Source: Candidatus Nanohaloarchaea archaeon
GTDB taxonomy: Archaea; EX4484-52; GLR71
Reading direction: 5' to 3'
Assembly: GCA_030636615.1 (NCBI GenBank)
Contig: DAOVWP010000001.1
Span: 1 to 28,925, forward strand
DNA: 28,925 nt
Made by a program: the position numbers and the translations under genes. The notes beneath the pieces were generated by a model. It had not been told where the DNA came from. It saw only the letters and a list, made by a program, of their open reading frames with translations, and made no database searches. Positions 7,119 to 26,821 of the stretch are shown in pieces; positions within the stretch are counted from its first letter, which is position 1, and every line of letters begins with the position of its first letter.

Positions 7119-7156
7119 TTTTTTGTTTAATTTTATTTTTTGTTTAATCTTTTTTT
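7119..7156 (+). terminator. Oligo-T archaeal-type terminator region between convergent genes
   Basis: T-rich tract directly after the stop at 7117, containing TTTTTTGTTTAAT twice (7119-7131, 7136-7148). Confidence 0.55.
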
Positions 7157-7664
7157 ATTGTTCAGACCACAGTATAAAGTTCAGGTCTGTCTCTATCAGG
7201 TCATCTGAGTTGTTATAGAGTATAATGCGTGATTTTGAAACAATGTCTGTGGCATTGTCACCAACATGTTCACCTATAGAGTAAAAGGTATCTGATGAAT
7301 TGCTGATTGTCAGATTGTAATGATAAAGGTTTATCGCCCATAATGATTTAAGGGTGGATTGGTCTATAGCTGAAAGTGAGTCAAGTTTTCTATTGCTTAT
7401 ATATAAATCCTCATCAAGCAGACCTGGGAGTCTTACAGTTGATGCGTTCCATTCATTTGGATAACCTTTTGTTCTTACAAGAAGTTCTGTGATATACTCA
7501 GCTTTTTGCGAGAGATATTTGTAGTGCTGGAAATCTGTTGATTTTGATTCGATTGCGTTCCAGGTCATATAGGTCAGAGATATTATTGCGAAAAAAATAA
7601 TTGCACTTACCATGAAATCCGTCGAGAGAACCATACCTTTTTTCTTACAATATGCTGGATACAA
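7155..7664 (-). CDS. Prepilin-like protein with class III signal peptide (KKG/MVLSTDF type)
   Basis: KKKG followed by a hydrophobic helix with an acidic residue near +5/+6. TTG start preceded by GGAGGTG at 6 nt spacing; overlaps the upstream gene by 20 nt. Confidence 0.8.
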   Translation of the reverse strand: MYPAYCKKKGMVLSTDFMVSAIIFFAIISLTYMTWNAIESKSTDFQHYKYLSQKAEYITELLVRTKGYPNEWNASTVRLPGLLDEDLYISNRKLDSLSAIDQSTLKSLWAINLYHYNLTISNSSDTFYSIGEHVGDNATDIVSKSRIILYNNSDDLIETDLNFILWSEQ

Positions 7665-8058
7665 ATATTACACCTCCTATATTTGAGATTGTGTTTTTGC
7701 CTGCTGAGATTGTTCCATTAACATCTGAGCTGACAATTTCTGAAAATACTGTCCGATCATTCCATTCCACAAAAATAAGGTCTTCTTCAATAGTTATATT
7801 ATATAGATAATTCATAAGTGTATCCGGAAGAGTGAAATTTGCTGAAAACCCGTCAGATTCAGCAAAAGCAATATTGATTCGACAGGCAACTTTGTCGGAG
7901 ATATATTCAGCTTCCCTTGATTCTTTATATGCAATAAAATCCTGCTGGCTGGAAGACAGATTAAGATAGAATACAGTAAATATCGTAAAGATGAATATTA
8001 CAAGCATCATGAATTCTATTCCTACCTGAGCAGACCTGTTATTCATATCATTATTCAC
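7645..8058 (-). CDS. Prepilin-like protein with class III signal peptide (RSA/QVGIEF)
   Basis: Canonical archaeal [KR]-x-[GA]/Q-x-x-x-E motif, then a hydrophobic helix. GTG start with GGGTGA 6 nt upstream. Confidence 0.87.
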   Translation of the reverse strand: MNNDMNNRSAQVGIEFMMLVIFIFTIFTVFYLNLSSSQQDFIAYKESREAEYISDKVACRINIAFAESDGFSANFTLPDTLMNYLYNITIEEDLIFVEWNDRTVFSEIVSSDVNGTISAGKNTISNIGGVIFVSSIL

Positions 8059-8503
8059 TGATATTCACCCAAATTGATCCCTGCGAACTTACAGCTTTGA
8101 CAATTATCTTATGGAGACCTTCACTATTTGTAAGGTTACCGCTTATGTTAAAATCAACACCTTCAACAATTGAGTTGGTGATGTTTCCATGAGTAACATA
8201 GAAAATGATTTCCTGCTTATCTATGACAATTGAGTTGATATTAGATGGAAAATTTACTGAAACTGACATCTTTGAAGGCGGACCCTGGGCTTTTACAATC
8301 TTGCTTGCTTCAACTATAGTATTGAGTGAATTTGATACCTGGATGTTTCGGTTGGTCTCTGTAAGATTAGTTGTCTGGTCTGAGATAATAATATAGACTG
8401 GGAGAAGAAGAAGGATTGCTATAAGGACTATAAGTACAAACTCAATGGAGACCTGTCCATGGCGGATGTTTTGTTTTAAATAAATATTGGAAAAATATAT
8501 CAT
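8051..8503 (-). CDS. Prepilin-like protein with class III signal peptide (RHG/QVSIEF)
   Basis: GQVSIEF motif, hydrophobic helix, and a globular domain with a GPPSK...FP segment as seen in small archaeal pilins. Confidence 0.88.
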   Translation of the reverse strand: MIYFSNIYLKQNIRHGQVSIEFVLIVLIAILLLLPVYIIISDQTTNLTETNRNIQVSNSLNTIVEASKIVKAQGPPSKMSVSVNFPSNINSIVIDKQEIIFYVTHGNITNSIVEGVDFNISGNLTNSEGLHKIIVKAVSSQGSIWVNISE

Positions 8504-8621
8504 ATATTCTATTAATTTAACTAATCAGATATAAATAGAGTATATTGGTGTGGTATAATGTTATATGATGTGTTATATTGTTATTATTTAAATACCATTA
8601 TCAAAATAGATGTTATAGGTG

Positions 8622-9458
8622 ATGGGCATTAGTGAAGAATTAAGAGAAATGATAATCAAGACAGGAGTTGATAGTCTCTTAGATCTTATCGTTGAAAAAG
8701 ACGGGCTTAGTATTGCAGAAGCATCAAGGGTTCTGCAGATACCTTCAAACAAGATTGAGTCATGGGCAACAGTGCTGTCAAAAGAAAAACTTATCACTAT
8801 GAAATATGAGGCTGGCGGGAACGTTGTAATGGGTCTGAATGCCAAGAATATGAAAAGTCAACAGGATAATATCAATAAAATCTCATCAAAAGTCTCTGAA
8901 GATATTGATAAGGTAGATAATGAACTTAATTCTTATGAGCAGACAATAAATCTCAACAAGGAAAATATCAATAGTTTTGAAAAAATACTTAACAAGGATA
9001 TAAGTAAGATTGAAGATATTGAAAAAGATCTTGCATCATTTTCAAAAAATAAAAAAGAACTTGAAGCCAGTATCTTAAAGATCAAGGAAGAAGAAAAAAT
9101 ATTATTGAAAAAAGAAGAGAATCTTGAGAAAAAAGAAGTTGAGATCAGCAGTAAAGAAAAAGTGTTGAAGAGCACATCAAAAGATATTATAGATACTATC
9201 ACAGAGAAACTTAAGATAATTGATGAAAGTCATGACAAGATTGTTGCTCTCAATAATGAGAAAAACAGACTGAAAGAAGATGTGGAGTTCATCAAGAAGA
9301 TCTCAAAGGTAATAGAGAAAGAAAAAGATACTGATAAACTACATGAGAGAATAAAAACGGTCGAAGAAAAACACAAGGCACTCAAAGACAATAGTTTCCT
9401 TTTGAAAATAAAGTTTGAGAAATTCCAGGAAATTGTAAAGAAGATCTTTCAGGTATGA
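8622..9458 (+). CDS. N-terminal winged-HTH-like domain plus long coiled-coil protein
   Basis: TGVDSLLDLI...LSIAEASRVLQIPSNKIESWATVL...ITMKY has an HTH-wing pattern; the remaining about 200 aa are K/E-rich heptads. Start GTG 8619 or ATG 8622. Confidence 0.75.
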   Translation: MGISEELREMIIKTGVDSLLDLIVEKDGLSIAEASRVLQIPSNKIESWATVLSKEKLITMKYEAGGNVVMGLNAKNMKSQQDNINKISSKVSEDIDKVDNELNSYEQTINLNKENINSFEKILNKDISKIEDIEKDLASFSKNKKELEASILKIKEEEKILLKKEENLEKKEVEISSKEKVLKSTSKDIIDTITEKLKIIDESHDKIVALNNEKNRLKEDVEFIKKISKVIEKEKDTDKLHERIKTVEEKHKALKDNSFLLKIKFEKFQEIVKKIFQV

Positions 9459-9535
9459 GAGCCTAAATATATAGAGTATTTTTAACAATAGATACTATAT
9501 ATATACTTCTTGTATAAAATTACATTCAGATAGAT

Positions 9536-11374
9536 ATGGGACTAAACAAAACAAGCAAGGCGGGGAAAGTTGGAAAGAAGAAAACAAAAGATATTATAAC
9601 CAAAAATCAAAAAAAAATACATCCAAGTCTACCTGCTGAAAATAAATTAAGTAAAAATGTAGTAAAGCTTGAAGAATCCCTTAAAAAAGCAACAGCAATA
9701 AAAACAACAAAAGAAGATAATAAGGATACTGCAACAAAAATAAAAAAAGAAGTGACAGAGAAGATAACAAAACCACTGAAAGCAAAAAAAGATAATAAGA
9801 ATACTGTAACAGAAGTTAAAAATGAGAAGATAATACATAAGAAAAAAGTGGTAAAGACAAAAAATGATGATCAGAAGATAGTTGATAAATATGATCTCTG
9901 CGCAGATGGTGTAAAAGCACAGGTCCTCATAATAAAAAATAAAAATGATTATGTCCCGTTCTATAAACTTGTAAAACCAGAATTACAGGAAGCAACACAA
10001 TCAATCCTTAAAGATGTGAGGGAAAAAGTCATATCAATCGTGCAGTTGAGTGAGAATGAGTTTGTTGATCCAAAAGCCTTAAGTGAAGTCAAGAAAAGGT
10101 TTATGGAAAAATCTGATGAGATACTCAAGGAAGATCTTCCGTTCCTAAGTGAGAATGACCGAAAAGTGCTTGTGGGAAAACTTATACACCAGATGCTTGG
10201 TCTTGGTGATATTGAACTTCTTCTTACAGATTCACAAATAGAAGAGATTGTCATCAACAGATGCAATGAACCGGTCTGGATATTTCACAAAAAGCAAGGG
10301 TGGATGAAGACTTCTATCATATTCGATACAGAAGAGTCAATATATAATCTGACGAGTTCTATAGGTAGGAAGGTCGGTAGGGAGATTACAAACCTGAATC
10401 CTCTGATGGATGCACACCTGTCAACAGGAGATCGGGTAAATGCTACGATGTTTCCAATATCTTCTTTCGGAAACACTATGACGATAAGGAGGTTTTCAAG
10501 AGATCCATGGACTATTGTGAAAATGATAGATCCAAAGGTAAAGACTATGTCTGTCGAGATTGCCGCTCTGTTGTGGTTATGCATGCAGTACGAGTTAAAC
10601 ATACTTGTAGTCGGCGGTACTGCATCAGGCAAGACATCAACGCTTAATTCAATAATACCTTTTGTCCCGCCAAACCAGAGAATCGTATCCATAGAGGATA
10701 CGCGTGAGATCAAGCTGCCAAAGTTTATGCATTGGGTACCACTTTCATCAAGACAGCCAAATCCTGAAGGAAAAGGTGGAGTGCAGATGATAGATCTTCT
10801 TGCTAATGCAATGCGTATGCGTCCAGACAGGATCATTGTCGGTGAGATCAGAAGAGAAAATGAAGCAGAAGTAATGTTTGAGGCAATCAGGACCGGTCAC
10901 TCAGCTTATGCAACATTTCATGCCGATCGCGCAGAGCAGGCATATACAAGAATAACCAATCCTCCAATCAATCTTCCTGAACCTCAGGTCAGCGCGCTGC
11001 ATGTCATAATTGTGCAGTACAGACACAGGCGGCTTGGAGTACGAAGGACTATGGAATTTGCTGAAATAATACCTATGGAAGCTATTGGGAAAAATAAAGT
11101 AAATGTCATCTATAAATGGAATCCAAGAGAGGATACTTTCGATAAAGTGGGAAGACTTGTAAGGATTATGAGAGAGTTGAGCCATTATACAGGGATGAGT
11201 GATACAGAGATTGAAGATGATCTTAAAGAAAAGGAAATTATACTCAACTGGATGCTTAAGCATGAGGTTTTTGATGTAGATCCAGTTGGCAAGATATTTG
11301 CGGAATATTACAGAGATCCAAAAAGAATTGCCAGTTTTGCCAGAAGAAATAAATTACCTGATGAGTTGATATAA
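9536..11374 (+). CDS. Type II/IV secretion (CpaF/TadA/VirB11/FlaI-like) pilus assembly ATPase
   Basis: Walker A GGTASGKTS, Asp box IVSIEDTRE, Walker B RMRPDRIIVGEIR, His box GHSAYATFHA; Lys-rich N-terminal extension of about 110 aa. Confidence 0.95.
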   Translation: MGLNKTSKAGKVGKKKTKDIITKNQKKIHPSLPAENKLSKNVVKLEESLKKATAIKTTKEDNKDTATKIKKEVTEKITKPLKAKKDNKNTVTEVKNEKIIHKKKVVKTKNDDQKIVDKYDLCADGVKAQVLIIKNKNDYVPFYKLVKPELQEATQSILKDVREKVISIVQLSENEFVDPKALSEVKKRFMEKSDEILKEDLPFLSENDRKVLVGKLIHQMLGLGDIELLLTDSQIEEIVINRCNEPVWIFHKKQGWMKTSIIFDTEESIYNLTSSIGRKVGREITNLNPLMDAHLSTGDRVNATMFPISSFGNTMTIRRFSRDPWTIVKMIDPKVKTMSVEIAALLWLCMQYELNILVVGGTASGKTSTLNSIIPFVPPNQRIVSIEDTREIKLPKFMHWVPLSSRQPNPEGKGGVQMIDLLANAMRMRPDRIIVGEIRRENEAEVMFEAIRTGHSAYATFHADRAEQAYTRITNPPINLPEPQVSALHVIIVQYRHRRLGVRRTMEFAEIIPMEAIGKNKVNVIYKWNPREDTFDKVGRLVRIMRELSHYTGMSDTEIEDDLKEKEIILNWMLKHEVFDVDPVGKIFAEYYRDPKRIASFARRNKLPDELI

Positions 11375-11409
11375 ATTATCCTGAAGTTGCCAGTTGTTTA
11401 GTCGCAATA

Positions 11410-12291
11410 TTGAAAAAGGGAGGGGTGGGAGTTATAGATAAGATGAAAAGAAAGATGAAGATACCCTCCAGATTCAAGGTTTTTGCAGAATCGATTGAGC
11501 CATATTTCTCATCAGTCAAAATAGACCTTCTACGGGCACGCATAGATACTAAGCTTACTGATTTTCTTGCGGAAACCTGTTACAAGAGCTTTAATATGGG
11601 TCTCATGTTTTTAATGTGTATGGTGATTTTGGGAGTATTTACAAAAAATATTAAGATTATAGGTATGGGACTTCTTATCGGACCGATCATAACAGGATTT
11701 ATCTTTTACAGTCTCCTATATGGGCCAAAAGTCAAGGTCAACAAGAAGGCAAAACTTATTGATAAGAACCTGCCATTTGCGCTCAGGCATCTTCTGATAG
11801 AGCTTAAGTCAGGAATACCTTTATATCAGGCAATAGTTGCTATATCCACAGATTATGATGAGTTGTCTGATGAGATAAGAGATATAATAAAAGAGATAAA
11901 CAGCGGTAAGTCTGAAATTAAAGCAATTGAAGAGAGTATCTCACTATCTCCTTCAAAAAATTACAGACGTGCGTTCTGGCAGATATTGAATGCTATAAAA
12001 ACCGGTACAGATATAAGTATCACGCTTGAGTCAACAGTAGAGAACATAACACAAAGACAGCTTATAGCGATAAAACAATATGGACAGGAACTCAATCCAT
12101 GGACACTTATGTATATGATGACTGCTGTAATCGCTCCATCGCTCGGGCTTACATTCCTTATGCTTCTGTCAAGTTTTACAGGACTTAACATCCCTGAGTG
12201 GGGAATGTATATCATGTTATTTTTCCTTGCAGTGTTTCAGCTATTCTTCCTGAATGTTGTGAAGTCAAGAAGACCTATGGTGAGAATATGA
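11410..12291 (+). CDS. Type II secretion system F-family (TadB/TadC/FlaJ-like) membrane platform protein 1
   Basis: IDKNLPFALRHLLIELKSGIPLYQAI motif and several TM helices, directly downstream of the ATPase. Start may be the ATG at 11443 rather than the TTG at 11410. Confidence 0.9.
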   Translation: MKKGGVGVIDKMKRKMKIPSRFKVFAESIEPYFSSVKIDLLRARIDTKLTDFLAETCYKSFNMGLMFLMCMVILGVFTKNIKIIGMGLLIGPIITGFIFYSLLYGPKVKVNKKAKLIDKNLPFALRHLLIELKSGIPLYQAIVAISTDYDELSDEIRDIIKEINSGKSEIKAIEESISLSPSKNYRRAFWQILNAIKTGTDISITLESTVENITQRQLIAIKQYGQELNPWTLMYMMTAVIAPSLGLTFLMLLSSFTGLNIPEWGMYIMLFFLAVFQLFFLNVVKSRRPMVRI

Positions 12292-13357
12292 TTGATAACA
12301 AAAAACTCCTCAAAAAGATAGAAGATCTGAAACAGGGAGTTAGCAGCAGGACAACTGAGAAGAAGAATTATCCGAAGATAATCTATGACCTTCTGCCGGA
12401 AAAGTACAGGAAGAAGATAGAGATTGAAGCGGATTATGCTGGGATTTATACACCAATCCATAACTATTTCGCAAATGTCATGAAAGCCTGTATTGCAATT
12501 GAGTTATTACTATTATTAATTATTACTCTCTTTTTCGGTATTGGCGTGAAACTTATTTTGGTCTATATTATTCTTGCTTTAGGTGTTAGTGTTTTTGTAC
12601 CATATATTCTTCTTACAATACTTTCAGAACATAAAAAAAGAATATGGAAGAAGTGCTGCCGGATCTGCTTGTACTTGTCGCGTCAAATATAAGATCTGGT
12701 CAGACAATTGACAAGGCGTTGTTTTTCGCTGCAAGAGATGAGTTCGGTGAATTATCAGTAGATGTCAGAAAAACTGCAATGAAGATATACAGCGGAACGG
12801 ATATAGGTCATGCATTACTGCAGCTTACAAATAGAGTGAAATCGTTCAGTTTCAAGAGGACTATGAAAATGTTAGCTGAGGGATTAAAAAGCGGTGGAAA
12901 TATTGCAGTTCTGCTTGATGAGAGCGCGTCAGATATACGCAGCACAAAGATACTTCTTAAGGAAATCGCTACATCTGTGCAGATGATGATCATGTTCATA
13001 TTTATAGCAGGTGTGCTTGCATCTCCTGCAATGTTTGCCATATCAAACTATCTTATAGTTAAAATGAGTAGTATGTGGAGTGGTGTTGACTCCTCTGCAT
13101 TTGAAGGAGCAAGTGCAGGTGGTGGTCTTATGTCTGCTTTAGAATTTGGTGAAACAAGCATTTCACCGGCGTTTTTTGATATGTTTTCTATATGGTGCAT
13201 ACTTATAACCACAATCTTTGGAGGTATGATAGTGTCTCAGATCAAAACAGGCAATATCAAAGACGCTGTTAAATATTCACCTCTATTCTCTGTTATTGCT
13301 ATAGGGATATATCTTGCTATAAAATATGTACTGTTTCAACTCCTTGGGGCAGCTTAG
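12288..13357 (+). pseudogene. T2SS F-family (TadB/TadC-like) membrane protein 2, split by a one-base frameshift at the A7 run 12633-12639
   Basis: ATG at 12288 overlaps the previous stop (ATGA) with GGTGA upstream. The N-terminal part (two TM helices) goes out of frame at CAT-AAAAAAA-G; the -1 frame continues MEEVLPDLLVLVASNIRSGQTIDKAL. One extra A gives a continuous 356-aa protein (...HKKKNMEEVLPD...). Could be a sequencing error rather than a true pseudogene. Confidence 0.85.
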
Positions 13358-13359
13358 GT

Positions 13360-13500
13360 TTAGGCATTTGTTTTCATAGAGATCATATCTAGGGATATTG
13401 AGATTTGGATATGATACTGCTAAAACCGCGAGAGTCATTTGGGATTAGGCATTGTTTTCACAGATATCATATTTGTTGGATACTGAGATAGGGATATGAT
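13360..13500. repeat. Degenerate direct duplication of 56 bp (13360-13415 vs 13445-13500)
   Basis: By-eye alignment gives about 45-47 of 57 identical columns with one compensating indel pair. The right copy is the last 56 nt of the 13445..14341 gene including its stop. Confidence 0.85.
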
Positions 13501-14341
13501 CACAGATATATTCAATTATCAGTTCACTGTCGTATTCTTCCATTTCTGTCTCGTCGTATCTTGATACAAGAATCACTTTAGTGTCGTCTAATCCTTTTTC
13601 TTCTATGAGATATACATAATTATATCCTTCAAGAGTGGGAAATCTCTGAGTTATGTCTCCTATGAGATCCTGGAAGATCTTGGATGAATATGGAGCATGC
13701 ACTTCAAGAACAACACGGTTGTTGTTCAAGAGAACTCTTTCCTCTGAATAGCTTATCTCATCTCTTGATATAACCTGCTCGGTCTGGGAAAGGATAGCAA
13801 TGATCTCATCCTCACTTAATTCCTTATCCAGTTCATCTGCGCCTGATGAGAAAATCTCTTTTATACGGCAATAATCATAATTATCCCTTACTGTCGGATG
13901 AAGATTATCGCATATGAATGTTCCAATAACATCCCTGTTAAAATATGACAACTCGGTTGTATTATATTTTCCTCTAAGGATTATTGTACCTGCTGAAGAA
14001 GAATCGTTCATCTCTTCAACAAAAACAAAACTTACATTTCCTTTATTAGACTCCAATGGCTCGAAATCTTCAAGAACTGTCTTATACTCTTCCTGAAAAT
14101 CTGAATCTGGCGGAAGTTCTATGAAAACCGAATATTTGCCAAGAAGAATATTTTTCTCCTCGAAAGAGAGTTCGCCTTCTTTAATTATCTGTTTGGTGTC
14201 TGCATTCTGTGGAGAGTATATTTCCCCGTAGAAAATCGCGCCCACCATAACTGATACGACAACAAGGGAAGTCATACCTATCATCAATATATACTTATTC
14301 TGCGGCTTTTTCTGACTGTAGTCTTTCAATAATTTCTTCAT
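13445..14341 (-). CDS. N-terminally membrane-anchored acidic protein with two internal repeats of about 100 aa
   Basis: Basic N-terminus, then a single TM (ILMIGMTSLVVVSVMVGAIFY). Two repeats start SFEEKNILL / SYSEERVLL and end ICDNL...YDYC / ICDHI...YDIC. Confidence 0.8.
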   Translation of the reverse strand: MKKLLKDYSQKKPQNKYILMIGMTSLVVVSVMVGAIFYGEIYSPQNADTKQIIKEGELSFEEKNILLGKYSVFIELPPDSDFQEEYKTVLEDFEPLESNKGNVSFVFVEEMNDSSSAGTIILRGKYNTTELSYFNRDVIGTFICDNLHPTVRDNYDYCRIKEIFSSGADELDKELSEDEIIAILSQTEQVISRDEISYSEERVLLNNNRVVLEVHAPYSSKIFQDLIGDITQRFPTLEGYNYVYLIEEKGLDDTKVILVSRYDETEMEEYDSELIIEYICDHIPISVSNKYDICENNA

Positions 14342-14372
14342 AATGCATCACTATCGTTCTATCATCCAATTA

Positions 14373-15608
14373 TCAATATATGAGGGATTGAGCACCCATT
14401 GAAGTTATATGATCATTATCCAGCATGAACCATGACAGTTCATTACTTACACCCATAAGGCGGTTAATACTGCCTGAATATCCTGAAAAGTAAAGATAAT
14501 CAATTGCAGTGTTGTTGAGTCTCATTGACTGCGGAAGTGATCTCAGATCCACAAAGGTTGCAAGGCCATAAGATGTTACATTATAATCCGGACTCATAGC
14601 AGATGAGCATTCAAACCGGTCAAAAAATGATGGGGCATCAAGGTCTTCAAAATAGCAGCCGGATTCTATTTCAGATAAGATATTGTTGAACCATACACTA
14701 CCTGACGAGTTGATCATCACAAAATAATCATTATCCTGCGCAGAAGCAAGCGCGCCTGCAACTATTTCTATTACAGGAACACTCAGATCAGTAGTATTGA
14801 TGTTCTCTTCAAACACAAGGCCTCTGAATGAGTTGAGATCAGTTGTGTCAAGACCGTCCTTGTTTGCTGAGACAAATATTTTGTTTCCTGCATCAGGACT
14901 ATTTATATCTGTAGTCACATATCCGCTGATAAATGGCTCAGAGAAACTTTCACTGATGCCTGAGTCAATGAAACCAAGCCGTTCTGTATGGTTGCAGATA
15001 TTGAATTTGCGTATGATATAGCTGTTGCTGTAAACAGAGAGATAGGGATCTTCAAACAGATCTATCCGGAGCAGCTGGCTGATAATATATGATTTATTGA
15101 ATGTTATTTCAACACTTGGATCTGAAGCTATGAAATTAACACTGCTTGTTATGTTCAGGGTAAATGGTGATGACGATGTGTTAAATGATATGGAATGTAT
15201 GTCTACTGTGCAGTCTATACCTATATCGCTGCTCATGAATACTACATTCTGTATCCAGTCGTCAAGGGTTGAGCCATTGAGAATATGTGAAGGCGTTCCG
15301 TTTATTGTGCCGTTAAAAATAGTCTCTAAAAATACTGCTGAAACATTGTCCACACATTTACCATCTGTGATTGTCTGACTTGTTGTTGCAATTATTGCTC
15401 TTTTCGTTGATATGATAATAGATCGTTCGATATCTTTTCTCAGGTCTGCCATAAAGAAATATAGTTCATCGCTCCTGAGCTTTGAGATCATCTCATCAGA
15501 AGTTCGCTGGTTTTCAGTATTTACATAAAATATAATCGGCGCAAAGGTTGCAATAACAAAAAGCGCGAACAGAGTATATATTACACCTTTTCTTCTTATC
15601 TTAATCAC
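14373..15608 (-). CDS. Large prepilin-like protein with class III signal peptide (RRKG/VIYTL), 411 aa
   Basis: RKG followed by a hydrophobic helix, a long amphipathic helix, and a C-terminal APSFFDRF motif. GTG start overlaps the vWA gene stop by 8 nt. Confidence 0.82.
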   Translation of the reverse strand: MIKIRRKGVIYTLFALFVIATFAPIIFYVNTENQRTSDEMISKLRSDELYFFMADLRKDIERSIIISTKRAIIATTSQTITDGKCVDNVSAVFLETIFNGTINGTPSHILNGSTLDDWIQNVVFMSSDIGIDCTVDIHSISFNTSSSPFTLNITSSVNFIASDPSVEITFNKSYIISQLLRIDLFEDPYLSVYSNSYIIRKFNICNHTERLGFIDSGISESFSEPFISGYVTTDINSPDAGNKIFVSANKDGLDTTDLNSFRGLVFEENINTTDLSVPVIEIVAGALASAQDNDYFVMINSSGSVWFNNILSEIESGCYFEDLDAPSFFDRFECSSAMSPDYNVTSYGLATFVDLRSLPQSMRLNNTAIDYLYFSGYSGSINRLMGVSNELSWFMLDNDHITSMGAQSLIY

Positions 15609-18600
15609 CTATTGATAATGTAGTGACAATCGGACCCCATAGCCAAGGTATGTCTGAGATGAATGAAGGTCTGAAGTTTATATTGTCTGAAATAAGCACA
15701 ACATCAAGACGATGGTCCATATTGTTGTCAAGCGTTTCAAAAAGCCTGTATGCCGCATCAATATAGGCATCATCAGTTGTCAGTGTCTGGCTTGAGTTGG
15801 TATAGTAGCATAGGTCTGATCCTGAATAGTCTGACGGAACAGTTATGTTTGTTGTGGTTGCATCATAAAATTCTACTTCCCAGATACACCCCTCGGATTC
15901 TGTGAACACTTCACCATAATCAACATAAGATCTTACTTTCAGCTTGTAGATTATCTTGTTATCAGGCGATCCTCCTTTTGGATTGTTTGGATCCAGTCCT
16001 GTCCTGACATTTACATAATTGTATTTTCCGGAAGAAATATACTGCAAAGGTATGTCTATTATGAACGGATCACCAAGAGACTGGTAAAGTGAATTGTAAT
16101 CATATAGTGAATATATTACTGAGCCGTTTGATGTAATGTCTGAAGAGATATTAATCTCATCAGTCCACCATTCTGAAGAGTAGGATATAACTTTTGCCTG
16201 AGAAACATGAGTGTTGTTGGGCACCATAAGTTGTCCTCTTTTAAAAGGCATATCTATATCATCTCCTGAAAAAGAACTGAATAATCCTGATTCCATATCA
16301 AGTGTGATGTTACCATAATTTTCAGATGATTCCTGTATGTATGAGTAAGATATGTTTGATATCGGATAAAGAATAATGTTGCTGAAATCACCTGTGAGCG
16401 TGGCAACCTGAGAATCATATCGCACAAGCGCGTTGGCAATACTTTCATATATCAGTATAAGCTGTTGGGCATCATTGCTTAAATAGTAATCTCCTCTTCC
16501 GCAATCCGCTATTCCTCTCATAGTAAAAGCATCAGATTCACTTCCGAAACCAATAGCATGTATAATAACACCATAGTCTCTGTGCAGATCGCATGCCGCT
16601 TTTATCGCATCGACAGAACTGCTGCCTGTACTCTGCGCGGCGCAGGATGTAGTAGCTGCGCCATCGCTCATGACTATTATAAACTTGTTCCTTAGATCTG
16701 TAAGTATCAGCTCAAGATCAAACTTGGCTGAGACATTTGGATTTACAAGTTCTACTGCAATTACATTATCACCAATAACAAGATTTGATGTTCTAATCAC
16801 AATCTCTTCGCTGTTCCAGTACTTTGCTGGTGTATCATCGTGTGATTGTTCATGAACAAGATTACCATTTATGTATACATTTGCATAACCATCAGCAAGA
16901 AGGTTCAAAAGAAGTTTCATCTCAGTCATGTTGGTTATATTGAAATGCTTCCTGAAGTAATAGGTATCTGTTCCGCTTGAGTTGACAAGCTTGAGACAGA
17001 TGTTATCAAATAGGATTTCTATACCTTCATTATCGCTCTTTGTCCCGCTCCTGTTTACCCAATCTACTATGCCACCAAGACTGAGATAGTATTTGCCTGA
17101 TCCTGCAACATATTCTGTAATGTCCTGACTGAAATGGCCACTATTTGGATCAGGAGCGAAACCGGATGATGGACTTGTCGAAGATGCCCAGACCTCATTT
17201 GTCTCATCAGACATGTTGTCAAGGTTTCTTCCAAGATAATTTGAAGTGGAATTATAATCAATCCTGGCTTTTATCCATGCAAACTCTTCAAGATCATTGT
17301 CCTCATCATCAACAGTCCAGTCGAATCCTATATGGAGTTCAGCGCCTGAGCTGATCATGTCATACTGTTGAGTTGTTATGTTGAAATCAATTCCCCATGC
17401 TCCACTGGCAATATATTCACTGTATCCTGTGTCAAATCCGCCAATCTTTACGCTGATCGACCCGGCCGTAATCTGATCTGATGCGCCATTAGGGTCACCA
17501 TGTATTGTAAAGCTTTCAGGCATGTTATTGTAGTCTGTGAATGGGTTGTCTGCCCAATCCCAGCCATCCTGCGCCCCGCTAAGTCCGAATGTGTTGGCAG
17601 TATAGTTGAGAGCGCTGAAAGTTACGCATTCTGAAGAAGATGAAGGAGAGCAGTTTTTTTCCCATAGATCTGCAACAAAGTAGTCTGTTGCATTTGAAAC
17701 GACAAAAGAAATGTTTCTGAAATACGCGCCAAGACCTTCGTTTGAACCTTTGCCGTTTGAATCTGAATCTGCCCAATCTACTTTTGCGCCGAAGTCTATG
17801 TAGTACCAGCCTGATCCGTTTATGTATTCAGAGATGTTTTCTGAAAAAGTTCCGTAATAATAACCATCCCACCCCTTCTTATGTTCGTCTACTAATGCCC
17901 ATACCTCATTTGAACTGTCTTCAAAAATTGCATCAGCTCCATGGTCTAAGTCTGAGCCGAGCCAGTTCATGTCGGTACTGTTTCCAAATCTTGCTTTTAT
18001 CCATGCGCCTTCTTCCAGATCATCATCAAGATCATCGGCGTACCATAAGAATGAATAATTGGCTGACCCATTATTGTTGATTATGTCTATCGCATATTGA
18101 GGTATGTAGAATTCTACGCCAAAAGCAGCGCTGTCAATCACATTATCCGGACTGTTGCCGTCATCTCCTATAATCACTTCAAGCTGTGTCCTGTCAGACA
18201 GACCATCATACCTATAGACACCTGAGCCAGTATTTGTATCATAGTCTGTTATGCCTTCAGGATCGCCGAACCTTGAATGATCTGATGTGGAGTCACCCAC
18301 ATAATCTCTCCACCAATCCCAACCATCATTGCTTCCTGATAGTTCAGGTGTATTGTCGGTTGAGTTAAAACCGCAGAAGAAAGTAGTTCCGTTGAACTGT
18401 GGAGTTTCCATATAACCATCCCATAGATCCATGTAGCTTTCGTTTGGATTTGATGAAGGATCAATTATTGTATTAATCAGAATTCCACTTATGTTGTCTG
18501 TGCCGAGAACTGCGTTGCCTGTACTCCACATAGATTCAAGGGAGTAATTATAATCTGACCAATTGTAATCAAGCCCGTCCGGCGCAGGAGCAATATTTGT

Positions 18601-20148
18601 ATAGTTCCATGTGTCTCCCGCAGTGATAAGTCTATCATAAGTAATATCTGGAGTCAGTAAATTTCCTGCTGAGTTGATACCGCAACAGATACATGTCCCT
18701 CCACTAGCATTATAGCCGTCTATTTCATTATCAAGAGTTGTCTGATCATCTGTAAGAGATATAACACTGTCAGTTGATGACTCATAAGATACAAGTCCGA
18801 CCATCTGACCATCATTACCAAGTATAGTATTCACAAAATTCTTGTCCAGCTTGATAGCAAGGCTCATACGATCAGTACCATTGTCGTCATCATCTGTGCT
18901 CCATGGCCAATTGAAACCCATACTGCCTGAGACATCAGTAACAAGAACCACATCACTTCCCTGAGAGAGTCCTGTGACATTCCTCATACCTATCCTTATA
19001 GGAATTGTCTTTAGACTAAGGTTTGTATTGTAGCTTTCAAAAAACTGTGAAATTGTGGAATTATCAATTATATGAATGCCTGTATTATTTGTTGAATATA
19101 CCTCCTGATCAGCAATCTTTACATAGAGTGTGTAGTTGTTGAGGATTGATAATGATATGTTTAGCTCTGTCAGATTACCAGGAATATAGAATGAGTCATA
19201 CAGATTTATCAAGCCGGTTATCCCTGGGAGATATAGTACATCTGATACTGTATTGTTGGCTGAGGTATCTGCAAGGGCAATATTCGATACATTATAGGTG
19301 AGTGCGATGTATCCTCCTGCAATATAGCCGAAATTATCGGAAATAAAATTGATTGAAATGTTGTTTCTTCCGGGTTGAATGTAGTTGTAATATGAATTGT
19401 TTAGGGTCCATTTGTCTGATCTCATATACCCCCCACCCATTGATCCATTATAATATATGCCTGCAGGCTGATCATTAAGTGATAATCTGAAGTTCTCATA
19501 AACATTTAGTTCCATTGTAATGTTGATGAGTGAGTCGAAGTCCTGGGGGAGATCGATATATGAAGTGATATTACCCTCACCTACATAACCTCCAAAGTAT
19601 ATGTAATCTGTGAAAAGCTGGGAGTGGATGCTTTCAATATTAAGCCTTGCGACATATCCTCTTCCTGTTGTGTTTGTCTTGTATCCTGAGACAATCCTTG
19701 ATGCAGATGTCACATGTTCGGACAAGTCCAGATCTCCTCTTGAAGCAATCAGATATGTTATATCCTCAGATGTAATTGAAAACTCAAAGTTGATATCTTG
19801 CGGAAATACTGATGAGAGGTAGCCGTAAGTTACATTTTCGGCAAGAGTTGAATGTCCTTCTGCCCAAAGCCGCCCGATTATATCCAAAAGTGATTCATCA
19901 AGGTTTTGCGCAGTTATGTTTGTTGAGCTGAGTATTTCCTGTTTTGTCGATTCTGGAAGTTGTGTACCTTTAGAAAGGGAAAGAAGCTGGGCCGCGTCTT
20001 CCGCCTGATAGTGGAGTTCTTCATAGTTTGAAGAGAGAACCAATGGAGTTGTATCAATATTTATAGTAAGTATATAGAGGGAGAGGATTATCATAAAAGC
20101 AAGCAAAGCATCTATTGTAAAAATTACACCCTTTCTGGATAAATACAT
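15601..20148 (-). CDS. Giant prepilin-like adhesin (RKG/VIFTIDA) with a split von Willebrand factor A domain, 1515 aa
   Basis: Class III-type N-terminus; MIDAS DVSGS (about 18922-18936), GGT (about 18700), VMSDG (about 16661-16675) and IHAIGFG, with an insert of about 650 aa inside the vWA fold. Confidence 0.9.
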   Translation of the reverse strand: MYLSRKGVIFTIDALLAFMIILSLYILTINIDTTPLVLSSNYEELHYQAEDAAQLLSLSKGTQLPESTKQEILSSTNITAQNLDESLLDIIGRLWAEGHSTLAENVTYGYLSSVFPQDINFEFSITSEDITYLIASRGDLDLSEHVTSASRIVSGYKTNTTGRGYVARLNIESIHSQLFTDYIYFGGYVGEGNITSYIDLPQDFDSLINITMELNVYENFRLSLNDQPAGIYYNGSMGGGYMRSDKWTLNNSYYNYIQPGRNNISINFISDNFGYIAGGYIALTYNVSNIALADTSANNTVSDVLYLPGITGLINLYDSFYIPGNLTELNISLSILNNYTLYVKIADQEVYSTNNTGIHIIDNSTISQFFESYNTNLSLKTIPIRIGMRNVTGLSQGSDVVLVTDVSGSMGFNWPWSTDDDDNGTDRMSLAIKLDKNFVNTILGNDGQMVGLVSYESSTDSVISLTDDQTTLDNEIDGYNASGGTCICCGINSAGNLLTPDITYDRLITAGDTWNYTNIAPAPDGLDYNWSDYNYSLESMWSTGNAVLGTDNISGILINTIIDPSSNPNESYMDLWDGYMETPQFNGTTFFCGFNSTDNTPELSGSNDGWDWWRDYVGDSTSDHSRFGDPEGITDYDTNTGSGVYRYDGLSDRTQLEVIIGDDGNSPDNVIDSAAFGVEFYIPQYAIDIINNNGSANYSFLWYADDLDDDLEEGAWIKARFGNSTDMNWLGSDLDHGADAIFEDSSNEVWALVDEHKKGWDGYYYGTFSENISEYINGSGWYYIDFGAKVDWADSDSNGKGSNEGLGAYFRNISFVVSNATDYFVADLWEKNCSPSSSSECVTFSALNYTANTFGLSGAQDGWDWADNPFTDYNNMPESFTIHGDPNGASDQITAGSISVKIGGFDTGYSEYIASGAWGIDFNITTQQYDMISSGAELHIGFDWTVDDEDNDLEEFAWIKARIDYNSTSNYLGRNLDNMSDETNEVWASSTSPSSGFAPDPNSGHFSQDITEYVAGSGKYYLSLGGIVDWVNRSGTKSDNEGIEILFDNICLKLVNSSGTDTYYFRKHFNITNMTEMKLLLNLLADGYANVYINGNLVHEQSHDDTPAKYWNSEEIVIRTSNLVIGDNVIAVELVNPNVSAKFDLELILTDLRNKFIIVMSDGAATTSCAAQSTGSSSVDAIKAACDLHRDYGVIIHAIGFGSESDAFTMRGIADCGRGDYYLSNDAQQLILIYESIANALVRYDSQVATLTGDFSNIILYPISNISYSYIQESSENYGNITLDMESGLFSSFSGDDIDMPFKRGQLMVPNNTHVSQAKVISYSSEWWTDEINISSDITSNGSVIYSLYDYNSLYQSLGDPFIIDIPLQYISSGKYNYVNVRTGLDPNNPKGGSPDNKIIYKLKVRSYVDYGEVFTESEGCIWEVEFYDATTTNITVPSDYSGSDLCYYTNSSQTLTTDDAYIDAAYRLFETLDNNMDHRLDVVLISDNINFRPSFISDIPWLWGPIVTTLSIGD
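16981..18429 (-). repeat. Two tandem protein repeats (period 253 aa) inside the vWA adhesin
   Basis: DLW starts at 18429 and 17670 (759 nt apart). Shared motifs in order: SGxxDGWDW, GDP, S(A/G)A(F/W)G, DDxDxDLEExAWIKAR, (W/Y)LGxxLD, NEVWA, FSxxIxEY, GSGxYY, VDW, NEG, FxNI. Confidence 0.9.
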
Positions 20149-21391: not shown

Positions 21392-22279
21392 TTAATATGT
21401 TCCACTAATTGTCAGAGTTCCTGTTGTAGTGTTTCCTGCAGGCATTCCGTAAGGTATTGATGCGAATATGCTTATTGAAAATTCTGATCCCGGTATTAAA
21501 TTAGCAGCTCTTAAATAGTCTCTATTAGTGCATGCAGGGAATGTTGTTGAATAATCGTTTTTATATATGTAGATCCTATCACAATTGACTGATGTTGCTA
21601 CACAGTGTCCGGTAAGCGGACCATCAACACATGCAAATGTTCCCCATGTAGTACCAACTGTAATAGCCCCACAATCAGATGGATCTGCTGTATGATCACG
21701 GCTCATATCTGTGTCATTTTCAGGAATCTCCGATATTATGAATATAGTACCTGTATCATTGCATTTTCCATCCGTACCGTTTTCAACTTTCCAGATATAC
21801 TCATTCCCTGAGGCATTTCTGTACCAGCCATGAGAAAAATTAGTTGTTCCTGATTCAAGATCTAAAGTCTCTTCACTAAGGACTGCTGAAAGGTTCCATT
21901 CAAAACGACCAACATGGTAATAATCTGTTTCTGTTGAATTTCTGACTAAAACGAGGCCTGGAGCGGAATATTTACTTGTATTTGCTGTAGGGAGAGGGTT
22001 TGTTGCTTCGTCAGTGATTGCACTTGAAGTTATATATACATTACTTACATTTGCTGAACCTTTGTTTTTTATTATTACATTTGTTTTACTAGTATCTGCG
22101 CCTGGATTTACCTCAGTCCATGAAACAGAAGTTGGATTTACAACGATTGTTCCAACTGAAGAGATATTTATTGTTACAGTCACTGTATCTGTTGTATCTG
22201 CTGCAAATGTAGCTGGGCCATTTATTAATGCAAAAATAATTATTGCCAATGTAAGAGATATTATATATTTTTTATTCAT
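21392..22279 (-). CDS. Secreted beta-rich putative filament/surface subunit (about 295 aa), no membrane anchor
   Basis: Sec signal MNKKYIISLTLAIIIFALINGPATFA; mature N-terminal strand TVTVTINI; VNPG...IKNKGS motif; six Cys; C-terminal IPYGMPAGNTTTGTLTISGTY. ATG at 22279 has GAGTGA 5 nt upstream (the ORF track starts at GTG 22288). Confidence 0.85.
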   Translation of the reverse strand: MNKKYIISLTLAIIIFALINGPATFAADTTDTVTVTINISSVGTIVVNPTSVSWTEVNPGADTSKTNVIIKNKGSANVSNVYITSSAITDEATNPLPTANTSKYSAPGLVLVRNSTETDYYHVGRFEWNLSAVLSEETLDLESGTTNFSHGWYRNASGNEYIWKVENGTDGKCNDTGTIFIISEIPENDTDMSRDHTADPSDCGAITVGTTWGTFACVDGPLTGHCVATSVNCDRIYIYKNDYSTTFPACTNRDYLRAANLIPGSEFSISIFASIPYGMPAGNTTTGTLTISGTY

Positions 22280-22321
22280 ATCAATCACTCTTAATATTAT
22301 AGTTCTATTTTGTCTGAGGGC

Positions 22322-23708: not shown

Positions 23709-24378
23709 ACTTATATATCCCCCATGCAATCACCAGAATAAATATAAAAACAAACAAGATTATAGCCATTTTTATATATTGATCCATCCGGGTTGGTTGT
23801 ACTGTTTCTGCAGATTGTGTGCCGCTTTCGTGATGTGTGACTATAGGGCTTATATCAACAGAAACTGTTTTAGGCCCTATATCTTCATTAGGTATATCCG
23901 GATATAAATCTTTTGTCACATAGACATCAAAAAAGAACAGGCGTTCCTGCCTTAGGGAAAAACCGGATATTGCATCGTTTCCGCCGGCAATGGCTTTCAA
24001 GACAATAATATGGTGACCTTGTTTTTCATATTTTGGAACAGATACATAGACATTTACCATAGCCGCGCTTACTGTCTTTTTAAGACGTGGGATGTATATA
24101 TGTTCAATATTCCCGGAATACATATCATCAAGATAAAACTCAGGGGGGTCTAAAATGACATCCCAATCTTTGGGTACATCAATGTTTTTCAATTTAACAT
24201 CATAACCTGAACCATCAGTATTCCAGAATAAAAGATTAAATTTAATTGTATCCCCAGGGGTAACATTTTGACTTGCAGATTTCTGTAGAGTGCCAAGATT
24301 GAATGCATCTACCGGTTGTGATAAAATACATGCAGTCAATATTGCAATCAATATGATCTTATGGTTGCTGACTTCCAT
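23701..24378 (-). CDS. Small secreted single Ig-like domain protein with C-terminal TM anchor (225 aa)
   Basis: Signal peptide ending QPVDA; VTPGDTIKFNLLFWN beta pattern; C-terminal AIILFVFIFILVIAWGIY. Coupled to neighbours by 20-nt and 8-nt overlaps. Confidence 0.82.
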   Translation of the reverse strand: MEVSNHKIILIAILTACILSQPVDAFNLGTLQKSASQNVTPGDTIKFNLLFWNTDGSGYDVKLKNIDVPKDWDVILDPPEFYLDDMYSGNIEHIYIPRLKKTVSAAMVNVYVSVPKYEKQGHHIIVLKAIAGGNDAISGFSLRQERLFFFDVYVTKDLYPDIPNEDIGPKTVSVDISPIVTHHESGTQSAETVQPTRMDQYIKMAIILFVFIFILVIAWGIYKYD

Positions 24379-26821
24379 TTACAACACCCTGTATATATAT
24401 AGTTCCATTATAATTATCAGCAAATATTGGTGGTATATTGATCCAGTACCACATAGTTATATTTGTCAATGATGACACATTAAACTTTAAAGGCATATAT
24501 GTCTTTGTCAGATTATATGAAGTAGTATATAAATTTGAACTGTTGCTCCATGTAAAATTTCCTACACTAAGAATATGCTTCGTCTTATATCCTTCCATAT
24601 CTGTTCCTTTTATATATAGATCCGTATCGCAGCTACCATCATTTATTGTTATATTATAAAGATCATCATTATTGCCCAATGCAGGATTTTCATAAGTATT
24701 AGGCATTAGAGGATTTGAGAAATTTATATATTCCCAATTGACTGTAAGATCCACAACACAAGGCACTACTGAAATTTCTGATGATAATGTAGTGTTCAAA
24801 GTGGTCCAGCCGGAGTCTGAGCTGAAATTGACATCCAGTTTCCATAGATTGAAATCAGGATCAGTAGCATTCACTATCCAGGAAATATTGCAATATTCAT
24901 TTTCAGATAATGGATTTGTTACACAGGATTTTGTAGATAGTGGTGATGCTTCATCAATGAAGAACGGTTCAGCACCATATGTTATATCTATTGCTGTGTC
25001 CGGATCTGATGATGTCTTATTATAGCGCACTGTCGCAAACACATTGCCGCAATTACCTTCTGCGCATATGACTGTCGCATTTACGATAAATTGCGTATTC
25101 CGTATTATATTTGTAGTAAAAACTGTACTTGGTTCTATAAGTTCAACTTCAAGCGTTGTATTAAATGTAAAATAAACAACAGTACTGTTGAGATTTCCGG
25201 CAGTATCATTTGCATATATAGTTATATTATTAAAGCCTTCTGTTGCTGTTATTGTTGTGTTGGGGTCAAAGGTCACGTTTGAATTTCCATTAAGGCTATA
25301 TTGCCAAGTATCAATAGACTCCTCGGCGCTGACATTAAGGTCAAGTTGTTTGTTAAAATATGTAATGTTCTCTGGCGAATAAAGATATAATACAGGAAGC
25401 ACTGTATCAACTGTAAAATATACAGTCACTTCAGATTCGTTCATATTGCCTGAACTATCGTTGCAGGAATATATGATGTAATGAGATAACTCAGGGAGGC
25501 CTTCTATAAGGCTGTACCAGTCGGTCGCAGATGTGTTTGACATTGTGATATTTGCTGCGCCGTCAAGAGAGTAGCCGCACCATGAACCGTTTTCATTAAG
25601 TGTCAGGTTTGCCCAGACAGAAGTTGAATTATATGACTTGTTCAATGGGAATTGGATTGTGATTTCCGGGGGTATTGTATCAACTGTACTGAAACTATAT
25701 ATTTCAGATACATTCATGTTTCCTGCAGTATCGTTAGCATATACCAGCCAGCTTATAATAGAGTCTACAGTTGAGTTGATCTGCTTGCTGACATTTGACC
25801 AATTACCTGTTCCGATCATACTGACATAAGTATCATTTTCAAATGTTTCGTTGCCATTATCAAAAGAAAATATATAACCTGCAAGAGCATAATCTGTCCA
25901 GTAAAGACTGAACAGCACATCTGTTCCGGCTTCAGTAGAATTTGTCTGATTTAAAGAATATTCAGGATACTCCGTATCGACGGTAAAATATACTGTGACT
26001 TCTGATTCGTTCATATTGCCTGAAGTGTCATTACACGAAAATATGATGTTATGACTTGACTCAGATAAGCCCTCAACAAGGCTGTTCCAGTTGCCGGTTG
26101 TATTTGACATAGTTACATTAGCTGCACCGTCAAGCGAATAGCCGCACCATTCACCCTCTTCATCAAGCGTTAGGTTTGCCCAGACAGAATCAATATCATA
26201 AGATTTGTTTAAAGGCGACTGAACTGTCAATTGCGGAGCTACTTCATCATCATAAATCAATACAAGATCAATCTCATCCCAAAAATTTCTGATCATAGGA
26301 ATATCAGATATTGAAGTCTCAACAGAATTATACAGTTTTATTTTGTATGTGCCAGTCGAAGAAAAATTATTTATACCAATACCAATAGACTCTGAAGTAT
26401 ATACAGCATCATCTGCAGTTGATGAACGCGAAAAAAGCTGGACTTCAGAACTGTCTGGTTTTATCAGAAATACTTTTATAATATTTGCTGTTGGAGCTGC
26501 AAGATCCCAAGTCTGCTTATATGAGAATAATGCAGTTGCAGAAGTAATAGTCCCTGGATTTGACCAAGTACTACCATCATTGGTGAGATTTCCTGAGACG
26601 CTATACCCTGTATCATCCAGGCTATCATTGACTTCAAAAATCCACACACCTGGGTCATCCTTTCCGCCAGAGATACTAAAATTTGATTCTGCAATATCAC
26701 TAAGATCATCTTCAGAATAGGTCCAACCGACAGAACTACCAGAAGTAAAATTACCATTAACTATAAAATTCTGCTGAAGTGAATAGATTGATGGCAATAA
26801 AATAACTAGTACTATCAACAA
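24359..26821 (-). CDS. Large secreted Ig-repeat protein (820+ aa) with a C-terminal subunit-like domain; true start probably at 26843 or 26847, across a T7 run
   Basis: Truncated-looking signal peptide, N-terminal NGNF jelly-roll-like domain, four Ig-like repeats (YxNDTxGN motif), a Cys-paired domain, and a C-terminal IPP...YNGTIYIQG domain; no TM anchor. Confidence 0.85.
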   Translation of the reverse strand: MLIVLVILLPSIYSLQQNFIVNGNFTSGSSVGWTYSEDDLSDIAESNFSISGGKDDPGVWIFEVNDSLDDTGYSVSGNLTNDGSTWSNPGTITSATALFSYKQTWDLAAPTANIIKVFLIKPDSSEVQLFSRSSTADDAVYTSESIGIGINNFSSTGTYKIKLYNSVETSISDIPMIRNFWDEIDLVLIYDDEVAPQLTVQSPLNKSYDIDSVWANLTLDEEGEWCGYSLDGAANVTMSNTTGNWNSLVEGLSESSHNIIFSCNDTSGNMNESEVTVYFTVDTEYPEYSLNQTNSTEAGTDVLFSLYWTDYALAGYIFSFDNGNETFENDTYVSMIGTGNWSNVSKQINSTVDSIISWLVYANDTAGNMNVSEIYSFSTVDTIPPEITIQFPLNKSYNSTSVWANLTLNENGSWCGYSLDGAANITMSNTSATDWYSLIEGLPELSHYIIYSCNDSSGNMNESEVTVYFTVDTVLPVLYLYSPENITYFNKQLDLNVSAEESIDTWQYSLNGNSNVTFDPNTTITATEGFNNITIYANDTAGNLNSTVVYFTFNTTLEVELIEPSTVFTTNIIRNTQFIVNATVICAEGNCGNVFATVRYNKTSSDPDTAIDITYGAEPFFIDEASPLSTKSCVTNPLSENEYCNISWIVNATDPDFNLWKLDVNFSSDSGWTTLNTTLSSEISVVPCVVDLTVNWEYINFSNPLMPNTYENPALGNNDDLYNITINDGSCDTDLYIKGTDMEGYKTKHILSVGNFTWSNSSNLYTTSYNLTKTYMPLKFNVSSLTNITMWYWINIPPIFADNYNGTIYIQGVVNGSQQP
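25404..26236 (-). repeat. Two highly similar Ig-like repeats of about 88 aa (about 25975-26236 and 25404-25668)
   Basis: Both contain PLNKSY-x3-SVWANLTL, WCGYSLDGAANxTMSNT and SCNDxSGNMNESEVTVYFTVDT; similarity is also clear at DNA level. Confidence 0.9.

Follow-up and report, generated by a model that had tools for sequence, protein, structure and literature searches.

The window analysed here is the whole 28.9-kb contig DAOVWP010000001.1 of a Candidatus Nanohaloarchaea archaeon (genome of 0.76 Mb, 72% complete), and its relatives are labelled DPANN/Aenigmarchaeota. DPANN archaea live attached to other cells, and to our knowledge the means by which they hold on are largely unknown. The window carries a co-oriented block of five genes on the minus strand, in 5′ to 3′ order P0004, P0001, P0002, P0003 and P0005, in which neighbouring genes overlap or are separated by at most 76 bp. 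Our subjects are P0001, a large secreted surface protein of 820 residues, and P0005, a small stand-alone subunit. An earlier note on this DNA had proposed that the C-terminal domain of the large protein is homologous to the subunit, and that this shared assembly domain lets the large protein dock onto or cap a polymer of the small one. Comparison of sequence profiles supports the view that the C-terminal ~145 residues of P0001 and the core of the subunit are homologous copies of one pilin-like immunoglobulin (Ig) β-sandwich.

The large protein and the subunit

P0001 is encoded by an open reading frame at 24359..26821 (all coordinates within the block are on the minus strand). The protein comprises a variable N-terminal region, Big_13-like Ig repeats and a conserved C-terminal half (residues ~385–820), and contains 51 N-glycosylation sequons. 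Its predicted pilin-like β-sandwich domain, delimited by an AlphaFold2 model, family comparison and hhalign, spans residues 677–820 (24362..24793) and begins with a short N-terminal linker strand (residues 677–686). The earlier note had placed the domain correctly at 24359–24790, which covers residues 678–820 and the stop codon, and the six peptides that it quoted from the two proteins are all located where it stated. Cys688 and Cys731 of the domain form a probable disulfide. At the opposite end of the protein, the long frame opens at a TTG within the hydrophobic core of the signal peptide (26820–26847). An ATG at 26843 that begins a good n-region (MEKTLYFF...) lies one base out of the P0001 frame across a run of seven T, and one T less in this run would give a normal signal peptide. 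The true start of P0001 may be this ATG, with a frameshift in the T7 run arising from an assembly error or from phase variation.

P0005 lies at 21392..22279 when read from the ATG at 22279 (295 residues); the open reading frame itself extends over 21392–22288, giving 298 residues from a GTG at 22288. The ATG is the likelier start because all relatives start at that methionine (MNKKY...). The protein has a Sec signal peptide that is probably cleaved after A-T-F-A (residue 29). The N-terminal part of the subunit core (residues 33–150; 21839..22192), assigned from the hhalign alignment, conservation and model strands, holds an amphipathic strand, TVTVTINIS, followed by a PG...IKNxGSxNxSxxY hairpin and a GRxEWNxS block. 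The C-terminal part of the core (residues 262–298; 21395..21505), assigned from the hhalign alignment, consists of PG-E ... VP-G-PAG ... GTLTI and supplies the final two strands of the sandwich; it aligns to IPPIFADNYNGTIYIQG of the large protein.

Between the two parts of the core lies a Cys-rich insert of ~110 residues (151–261; 21506..21838), defined by a grid of deletions, the positions of its cysteines and the structural model. The six cysteines that the earlier note had ascribed to it (Cys 176, 206, 220, 229, 236 and 253) all fall inside these limits, and the insert has no counterpart in the domain of the large protein. AlphaFold2 (predicted local distance difference test (pLDDT) score of 79 for the subunit) modelled the Cys-rich part as a separate small β subdomain, which may be V-like and hold three disulfides. 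The insert holds HGWYRNASGNEY, which is similar to framework 2 of camelid nanobodies (window 21740–21880, residues ~138–220). The weak nanobody matches to the insert in the PDB (E values of 0.08–0.9) all come from one family and were taken as probable chance matches.

Profile comparison of the subunit and the C-terminal domain

BLASTP of the subunit against the large protein gave no alignment at the expected place, and the best Smith–Waterman score was reached by 27% of 500 shuffles (p = 0.27). Among the three aligned blocks on which the earlier note had based its claim, block 2 alone (IIKNKGSANVSNVYI versus ITINDGSCDTDLYI) exceeded shuffles (p = 0.007). We compared the two families as profiles, using subunit alignments of 31 (A1) and 42 (A5) sequences and domain alignments of 11 (A3) and 82 (A4) sequences. 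The shallow full-length profiles, A1 against A3, yielded a probability of 1% for an 18-column match that was off register, and shallow profiles with the insert excised were still weak (P ~0.01–0.02); a visible signal needs the deeper alignments A4 and A5. As the alignments deepened, full-length profiles matched at probabilities of 20% (P 1.1e-3, 34 columns) and then 41% (P 2.8e-4, 51 columns), both in the register that the earlier note had proposed.

The insert was then removed from the subunit profile, because the AlphaFold2 model builds the sandwich from residues ~46–118 and ~262–298. Retaining subunit residues 33–118 and 259–298 gave an hhalign probability of 92% (P 5.8e-7, score 43.9, 121 columns), and retaining residues 33–150 and 262–298 gave 94.3% (P 1e-7, score 49.7, 125 columns). 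All three blocks of the earlier note were recovered in register by the insert-excised alignment, and the profile comparison that it had suggested as a check thus finds its match once the insert is excised. A fourth aligned block, absent from the earlier note, pairs HVGRFEWNLS of the subunit with SVGNFTWSNS, at positions that are invariant in both families. The homology that the note had drawn from a manual alignment therefore holds as a remote relationship at the level of profiles, with hhalign probabilities of 92–94% backed by controls and a pairwise identity between subunit core and C-terminal domain of ~21–24%. A second, small insert of the subunit, at residues ~97–120, likewise lacks a counterpart in the large protein.

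Controls run with an unchanged query profile placed the real score of 43.9 well clear of the null. One hundred column shuffles of the target scored 12.2 ± 2.4, with a maximum of 19.6, reversed profiles scored 16, and six other protein families of the locus scored no more than 22. Scores of 11–14.5 were obtained for four further Ig-like domains from the P0001 family. We rejected the notion that the similarity stems from a generic 'PG...xNxGS' hairpin shared by every Ig domain of the locus, because these other domains score at the null level. Across 64 alternative deletions, the score was maximal when the deletion ended at residues 255–262, the site of the structural insert. In a set of 412 proteins, a hidden Markov model of the subunit core found the C-terminal domain of large proteins, at an E value of 6e-7 for P0168 and at ~1e-3 or better for three further ones, and by BLASTP the last 38 residues of the subunit match the C-terminus of one distant large protein (E = 7e-4).

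Predicted structures are consistent with this relationship. The AlphaFold2 model of the C-terminal domain reached a pLDDT of 91, and the lists of nearest PDB representatives for the two models have 36 of 50 entries in common. Template 5fqe_A accommodates subunit residues 46–298 over its positions 5–149 and domain residues 20–150 over 5–153; 2qsv_A accommodates the subunit over 1–88 and the domain over 1–95; and 6fvi_A takes the subunit over 1674–1776 and the domain over 1657–1783. Because both models occupy the same template ranges, subunit residue 46 is the equivalent of domain residue 20, which is precisely the register of the hhalign alignment. The PDB neighbours include chaperone–usher pilins and the pilin domains of FimH, CfaE, CsuE and LpfD, the most complete structural match is TLP-1b, and a search of the Atlas placed a WxL-annotated cluster among the structural neighbours of the domain (template-modelling score of 0.66). 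Sequence searches returned no solved relative of either family, and on the strength of the models we regard both proteins as probable pilin/PapD-like Ig sandwiches. A modelled heterodimer of mature subunit and C-terminal domain, supplied with both alignments and run without controls, reached a best score of 0.18 against a mark of 0.32 and counts neither way.

Families, gene neighbourhood and co-occurrence

A profile of the C-terminal domain retrieved 273 representatives at 50% clustering, and in all 150 of the representatives listed, proteins of 94–4980 residues, the domain forms the extreme C-terminus. Short forms of 94–241 residues that would represent the domain standing alone were rejected as gene fragments, because they lack a signal peptide and start within the preceding domain. 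The regions ahead of the domain are highly variable: even the 11 nearest relatives of P0001 (464–1121 residues) keep the C-terminal half alone. Five N-x-S/T sequons of the domain are invariant or nearly so across 82 sequences (positions 6–8, 53, 85, 90 and 117–119), and glycans may be structural parts of the C-terminal module. A distant large protein of 1619 residues (L008:10001–14860) has a precomputed match to PF27237 (AF_1625_C); this family is not listed for other domain-bearing proteins, and hence the match probably lies in the payload rather than in the domain. A literature search returned no mention of PF27237.

The subunit family comprises ~60 clusters of proteins of 290–330 residues, whose named members are all DPANN/Aenigmarchaeota. 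Of 42 genomes of the phylum, 33 carry the family, and many of them have tandem arrays of 2–6 paralogues reminiscent of major and minor pilin genes. Conservation across the paralogues is concentrated in the N-terminal strand that follows the signal peptide, the PG hairpin, an R-x-E-W/Y-N block and a C-terminal VP-G-P...G-LT strand, and these are the same blocks that the subunit has in common with the large protein. Both proteins are secreted through Sec-type signals and are rich in N-glycosylation sequons. Neither family matched a family in the copy of Pfam that was scanned, and precomputed Pfam matches of the members include none over the domain or the subunit. On one related contig, four tandem subunit genes are directly followed on the same strand by an open reading frame of more than 3343 residues that runs off the contig end (L010:647–10675; contig C5 of genome G041).

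The other genes of the block encode candidate membrane-bound partners. P0004 (26850..28925; more than 691 residues, its 5′ end cut by the contig end) has multiple Ig domains and CarboxypepD_reg domains, together with a membrane helix and a cytoplasmic tail rich in Lys. P0002 (23701..24378; 225 residues) has a single Ig domain, of the NEW3/COG1470-like kind, between a signal peptide and a C-terminal membrane helix, and its gene overlaps the genes on both sides. P0003 (22365..23729; 454 residues) combines CARDB/NEW3-like Ig domains with a coiled coil and a C-terminal membrane helix. P0004, P0002 and P0003 thus each carry a membrane helix, and P0001 and P0005 have no anchor.

The order of P0004-like, large-protein, P0002-like and P0003-like genes with an adjoining subunit gene recurs in three related loci (L001, L002 and L003), in which the subunit gene is convergent, on the opposite strand. 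The same gene order is found in the distant locus L008, where the subunit is only 28% identical, and linkage is evident by coordinates in four further genomes (G024, G025, G029 and G038); in all of these, as in the window, the genes for the subunit and the large protein lie within ~3 kb of each other. The P0002 gene always directly follows the large-protein gene in the relatives. Upstream of the P0004 homologue, beyond the point where the window contig ends, relatives carry three more conserved genes (L003:15008–17354, L002:11984–14468, L001:18624–19999, L008:19371–24860 and L005:1993–7723). They encode a ~330-residue protein with a signal peptide, Ig domains and a membrane helix, a ~190-residue protein that also has a membrane helix and gave a weak HYDIN/ASH/PapD-like match, and a third protein of ~250 residues; a ParA/MinD-like ATPase is sometimes encoded in this upstream block as well. 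The most constant neighbour of the subunit arrays is the P0004 block rather than the large protein: in G041 and G002 that block adjoins the arrays and the large protein is encoded elsewhere. Across the 42 genomes of the phylum, 25 have both families, 2 the domain only, 8 the subunit only and 7 neither. This co-occurrence supports an association without proving it, because the genomes are interrelated and incomplete.

A candidate surface fibre and its alternatives

Our preferred reading, which we advance tentatively and by analogy, is that the locus encodes a Sec-dependent, usher-less surface fibre built by β-strand complementation, with the large protein joined at one end. The small protein would form the shaft through its conserved amphipathic N-terminal strand, and the invariant C-terminal domain of the large protein would be the module by which a variable N-terminal adhesin is joined to one end of that shaft. 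P0002, P0003 and P0004, together with the ~330-, ~190- and ~250-residue proteins of the relatives, could act as membrane-bound chaperones, as the anchor at the base, or as both, by analogy with ElrE and PamC/D/R. The extreme C-terminal position of the domain is that of the pilin domain in the tip adhesins FimH, CfaE, CsuE and ElrA. The shared assembly domain that the earlier note had envisaged thus gains partial support from the C-terminal position, the linkage, the fold class and two bacterial precedents; docking onto or capping of a polymer of the small protein is itself a plausible extension by analogy.

The precedents are usher-less pili of single-membrane bacteria, whose chaperones are held in the membrane by their C-terminus and whose tip adhesins are modular (10.64898/2026.10.17.759780; PMC13278184). 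One is the Elr/WxL pilus of Enterococcus faecalis and other Bacillota, reported to be confined to Bacillota (10.64898/2026.10.17.759780). Like these clusters, the archaeal block pairs a small domain-only protein with a large protein that bears the same domain C-terminally behind a variable payload. In both systems the small secreted protein amounts to little more than the domain with an amphipathic strand at its N-terminus, the Ig-like accessory proteins carry a membrane helix at the C-terminus, and secretion relies on Sec with no usher. The P0002- and P0003-type neighbours resemble DUF916/DUF3324 proteins in having a signal peptide, one or more Ig domains and a C-terminal helix, but match NEW3/CARDB/COG1470-type domains. 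The archaeal locus differs further in having no LPxTG or sortase anchor, in a host without peptidoglycan, and no sequence match to Pfam WxL or DUF916/DUF3324; its subunit has a large Cys-rich insert, and both of its proteins are rich in sequons.

The second precedent is the Pam pilus of bacteria of the candidate phyla radiation (CPR), for which an acceptor-only tip subunit has been proposed (PMC13278184). Its host is likewise an ultra-small, single-membrane episymbiont, and it likewise combines, in one locus, Ig-like pilins with chaperone-like and terminator-like proteins that have C-terminal membrane helices. A Pam pilin, in contrast, has two domains and a linker strand, and the tip of the Pam pilus consists of one small domain, not of a large adhesin. 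Pam pili belong to bacteria and the present locus to an archaeon, and the two are likened by layout, not by sequence.

More distant comparisons can be made with chaperone–usher tip adhesins (FimH, CfaE, CsuE and LpfD), which similarly place a receptor-binding region N-terminally and, at the C-terminus, a pilin domain homologous to the shaft subunit. Unlike their hosts, the archaeon has one membrane and no outer membrane, the locus holds neither an usher nor a periplasmic PapD-type chaperone gene, and there is no sequence similarity. We also considered TasA/camelysin and archaeal donor-strand filaments (TasA 8aur, AbpA 7ueg, Saci_0406 threads 7pnb, cannulae 9h8b, Tafi 9p0a and TLP-1 9ikk). In the archaeal threads of Saci_0406, a minor protein of the same fold, Saci_0405, has been proposed as a cap or nucleator (PMC9715654), a role that the proposed one of the large protein resembles. 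The caps in those systems, however, are small proteins rather than large modular adhesins, none of the systems comes from DPANN archaea, and the present locus has no SipW-type peptidase nearby. A full-text literature search returned no paper on donor-strand filaments in DPANN archaea.

Searches with family profiles bear out these differences. The WxL profile PF13731, which does detect a Lactococcus lactis control, had no match at E ≤ 1 in the genome of the window or among 42 subunit and 82 domain sequences. No usher or PapD-type chaperone family of Pfam was matched by genes of the window or of L001–L003, L008 and L009, and no sortase signal, DUF916 or SipW-type peptidase was found in the loci examined. 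The only recurrent Pfam match of the subunit family is Peptidase_M73 (TasA; PF12389, curated cut-off of 22.5 bits), which appears in 7 of 42 members with a best E value of 0.0035, always below threshold; residues 5–92 of P0005 score 12.9 bits (E = 0.098), and the C-terminal domain family has no such match. Neither the subunit nor the domain could be assigned to the CARDB/NEW3/DUF11-type Ig families with PF07705, PF10633 and PF01345. By analogy, the locus would work like a WxL/Elr or chaperone–usher tip-plus-shaft pair while belonging, on these tests, to neither family.

Several observations weigh against a strand-complemented fibre. Several genomes, G041 and G036 among them, have the two genes on separate contigs, and the 8 of 42 genomes with the subunit alone have no detected domain. 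The accessory proteins match neither DUF916 nor a PapD chaperone family, Pfam WxL is unmatched and the TasA matches are sub-threshold. There is no polymer among the results. Finally, residues 677–686 of the large protein align to the N-terminal strand of the subunit, so that the large protein is not obviously an acceptor only; because it retains this segment, it could donate a strand rather than accept one, so that either polarity of the fibre is conceivable.

The alternative that survives best, although we judge it unlikely, is a surface-anchoring domain that does not polymerise, through which the small protein and the large adhesin would bind the same membrane-anchored receptor (P0002, P0003 or P0004) or a surface glycan, in a complex like that of the older Csc/WxL model and with no fibre. 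Such a receptor would suit two proteins without an anchor that are co-transcribed with three neighbours bearing C-terminal membrane helices, in an arrangement in which the order from large protein to P0002 to P0003 is conserved and the genes overlap. The fold of the domain is also equally near to complete sandwiches that do not polymerise, WxL proteins bind the DUF916/DUF3324 protein of their own cluster (PMC10599100), and a WxL-annotated cluster is the structural neighbour in the Atlas mentioned above. According to a recent preprint, however, the WxL clusters behind that model build donor-strand pili (10.64898/2026.10.17.759780). Polymer subunits more typically show what is seen here, tandem paralogues and a strictly conserved N-terminal amphipathic strand immediately behind the signal peptide, and in G041 and G002 the arrays adjoin the P0004 block without P0002 or P0003.

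It is improbable that the two proteins share ancestry and nothing more, as diverged paralogues of a general extracellular β-sandwich with no common partner or assembly role. In favour of this reading, Ig-like sandwiches are freely duplicated and shuffled among surface proteins, some genomes do not preserve the linkage and the identity is low. Against this stand the absence of any relationship between either protein and the other Ig-like domains of the locus, the fixed terminal position across the 150 listed architectures, a neighbourhood that persists down to 28% subunit identity, and the coincidence of the blocks conserved within each family with those common to both. Least likely of all is a two-dimensional, surface-layer (S-layer)-like coat of the small protein into which the large protein would be inserted by its homologous domain: the subunit is widespread, secreted and rich in glycosylation sites and no other S-layer protein is evident in the window, but a protein of ~300 residues with one sandwich and a small insert is small for an archaeal S-layer protein, the family is missing from 9 of 42 genomes (3 of them among the 10 genomes of ≥90% completeness), and the nearest of the solved structures that give full coverage belong to linear fibres rather than lattices.

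The comparison defines two protein families outside the scanned Pfam and relates them to each other. Hundreds of diverse large surface proteins, of up to ~5000 residues, end in the same ~145-residue module, which also forms the core of a small secreted protein, often present in several copies, whose gene lies alongside. Such a pattern is characteristic of modular adhesins that share a scaffold. Should the strand-complemented fibre be real, a principle reported only in 2026 for Gram-positive and CPR bacteria would reach the archaea and, beyond the CPR, a second group of ultra-small symbionts, as a convergent or a very old solution to building a pilus on one membrane. The stronger proposition, that this is the first donor-strand-type, usher-less pilus of DPANN archaea, with a Cys-rich shaft protein of ~300 residues, anchored Ig-like chaperones and interchangeable adhesins of up to ~5000 residues that all attach by a single invariant pilin-like module at their C-terminus, is doubtful; were it true, the Elr/WxL and Pam pili would have a counterpart in archaea, and this pilus would be a candidate structure for deciding which host an episymbiont attaches to. 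The subunit, the C-terminal module and the anchored neighbours offer concrete targets for expression, electron microscopy and metaproteomics.

The window also contains a type IV pilus-like locus (7155–20148) that encodes a giant pilin bearing a VWA domain, small prepilins, an ATPase and two TadC-like proteins. It lies beside the Sec-dependent cluster in the window and in the distant L008 (87–9114), but not in L001–L003.

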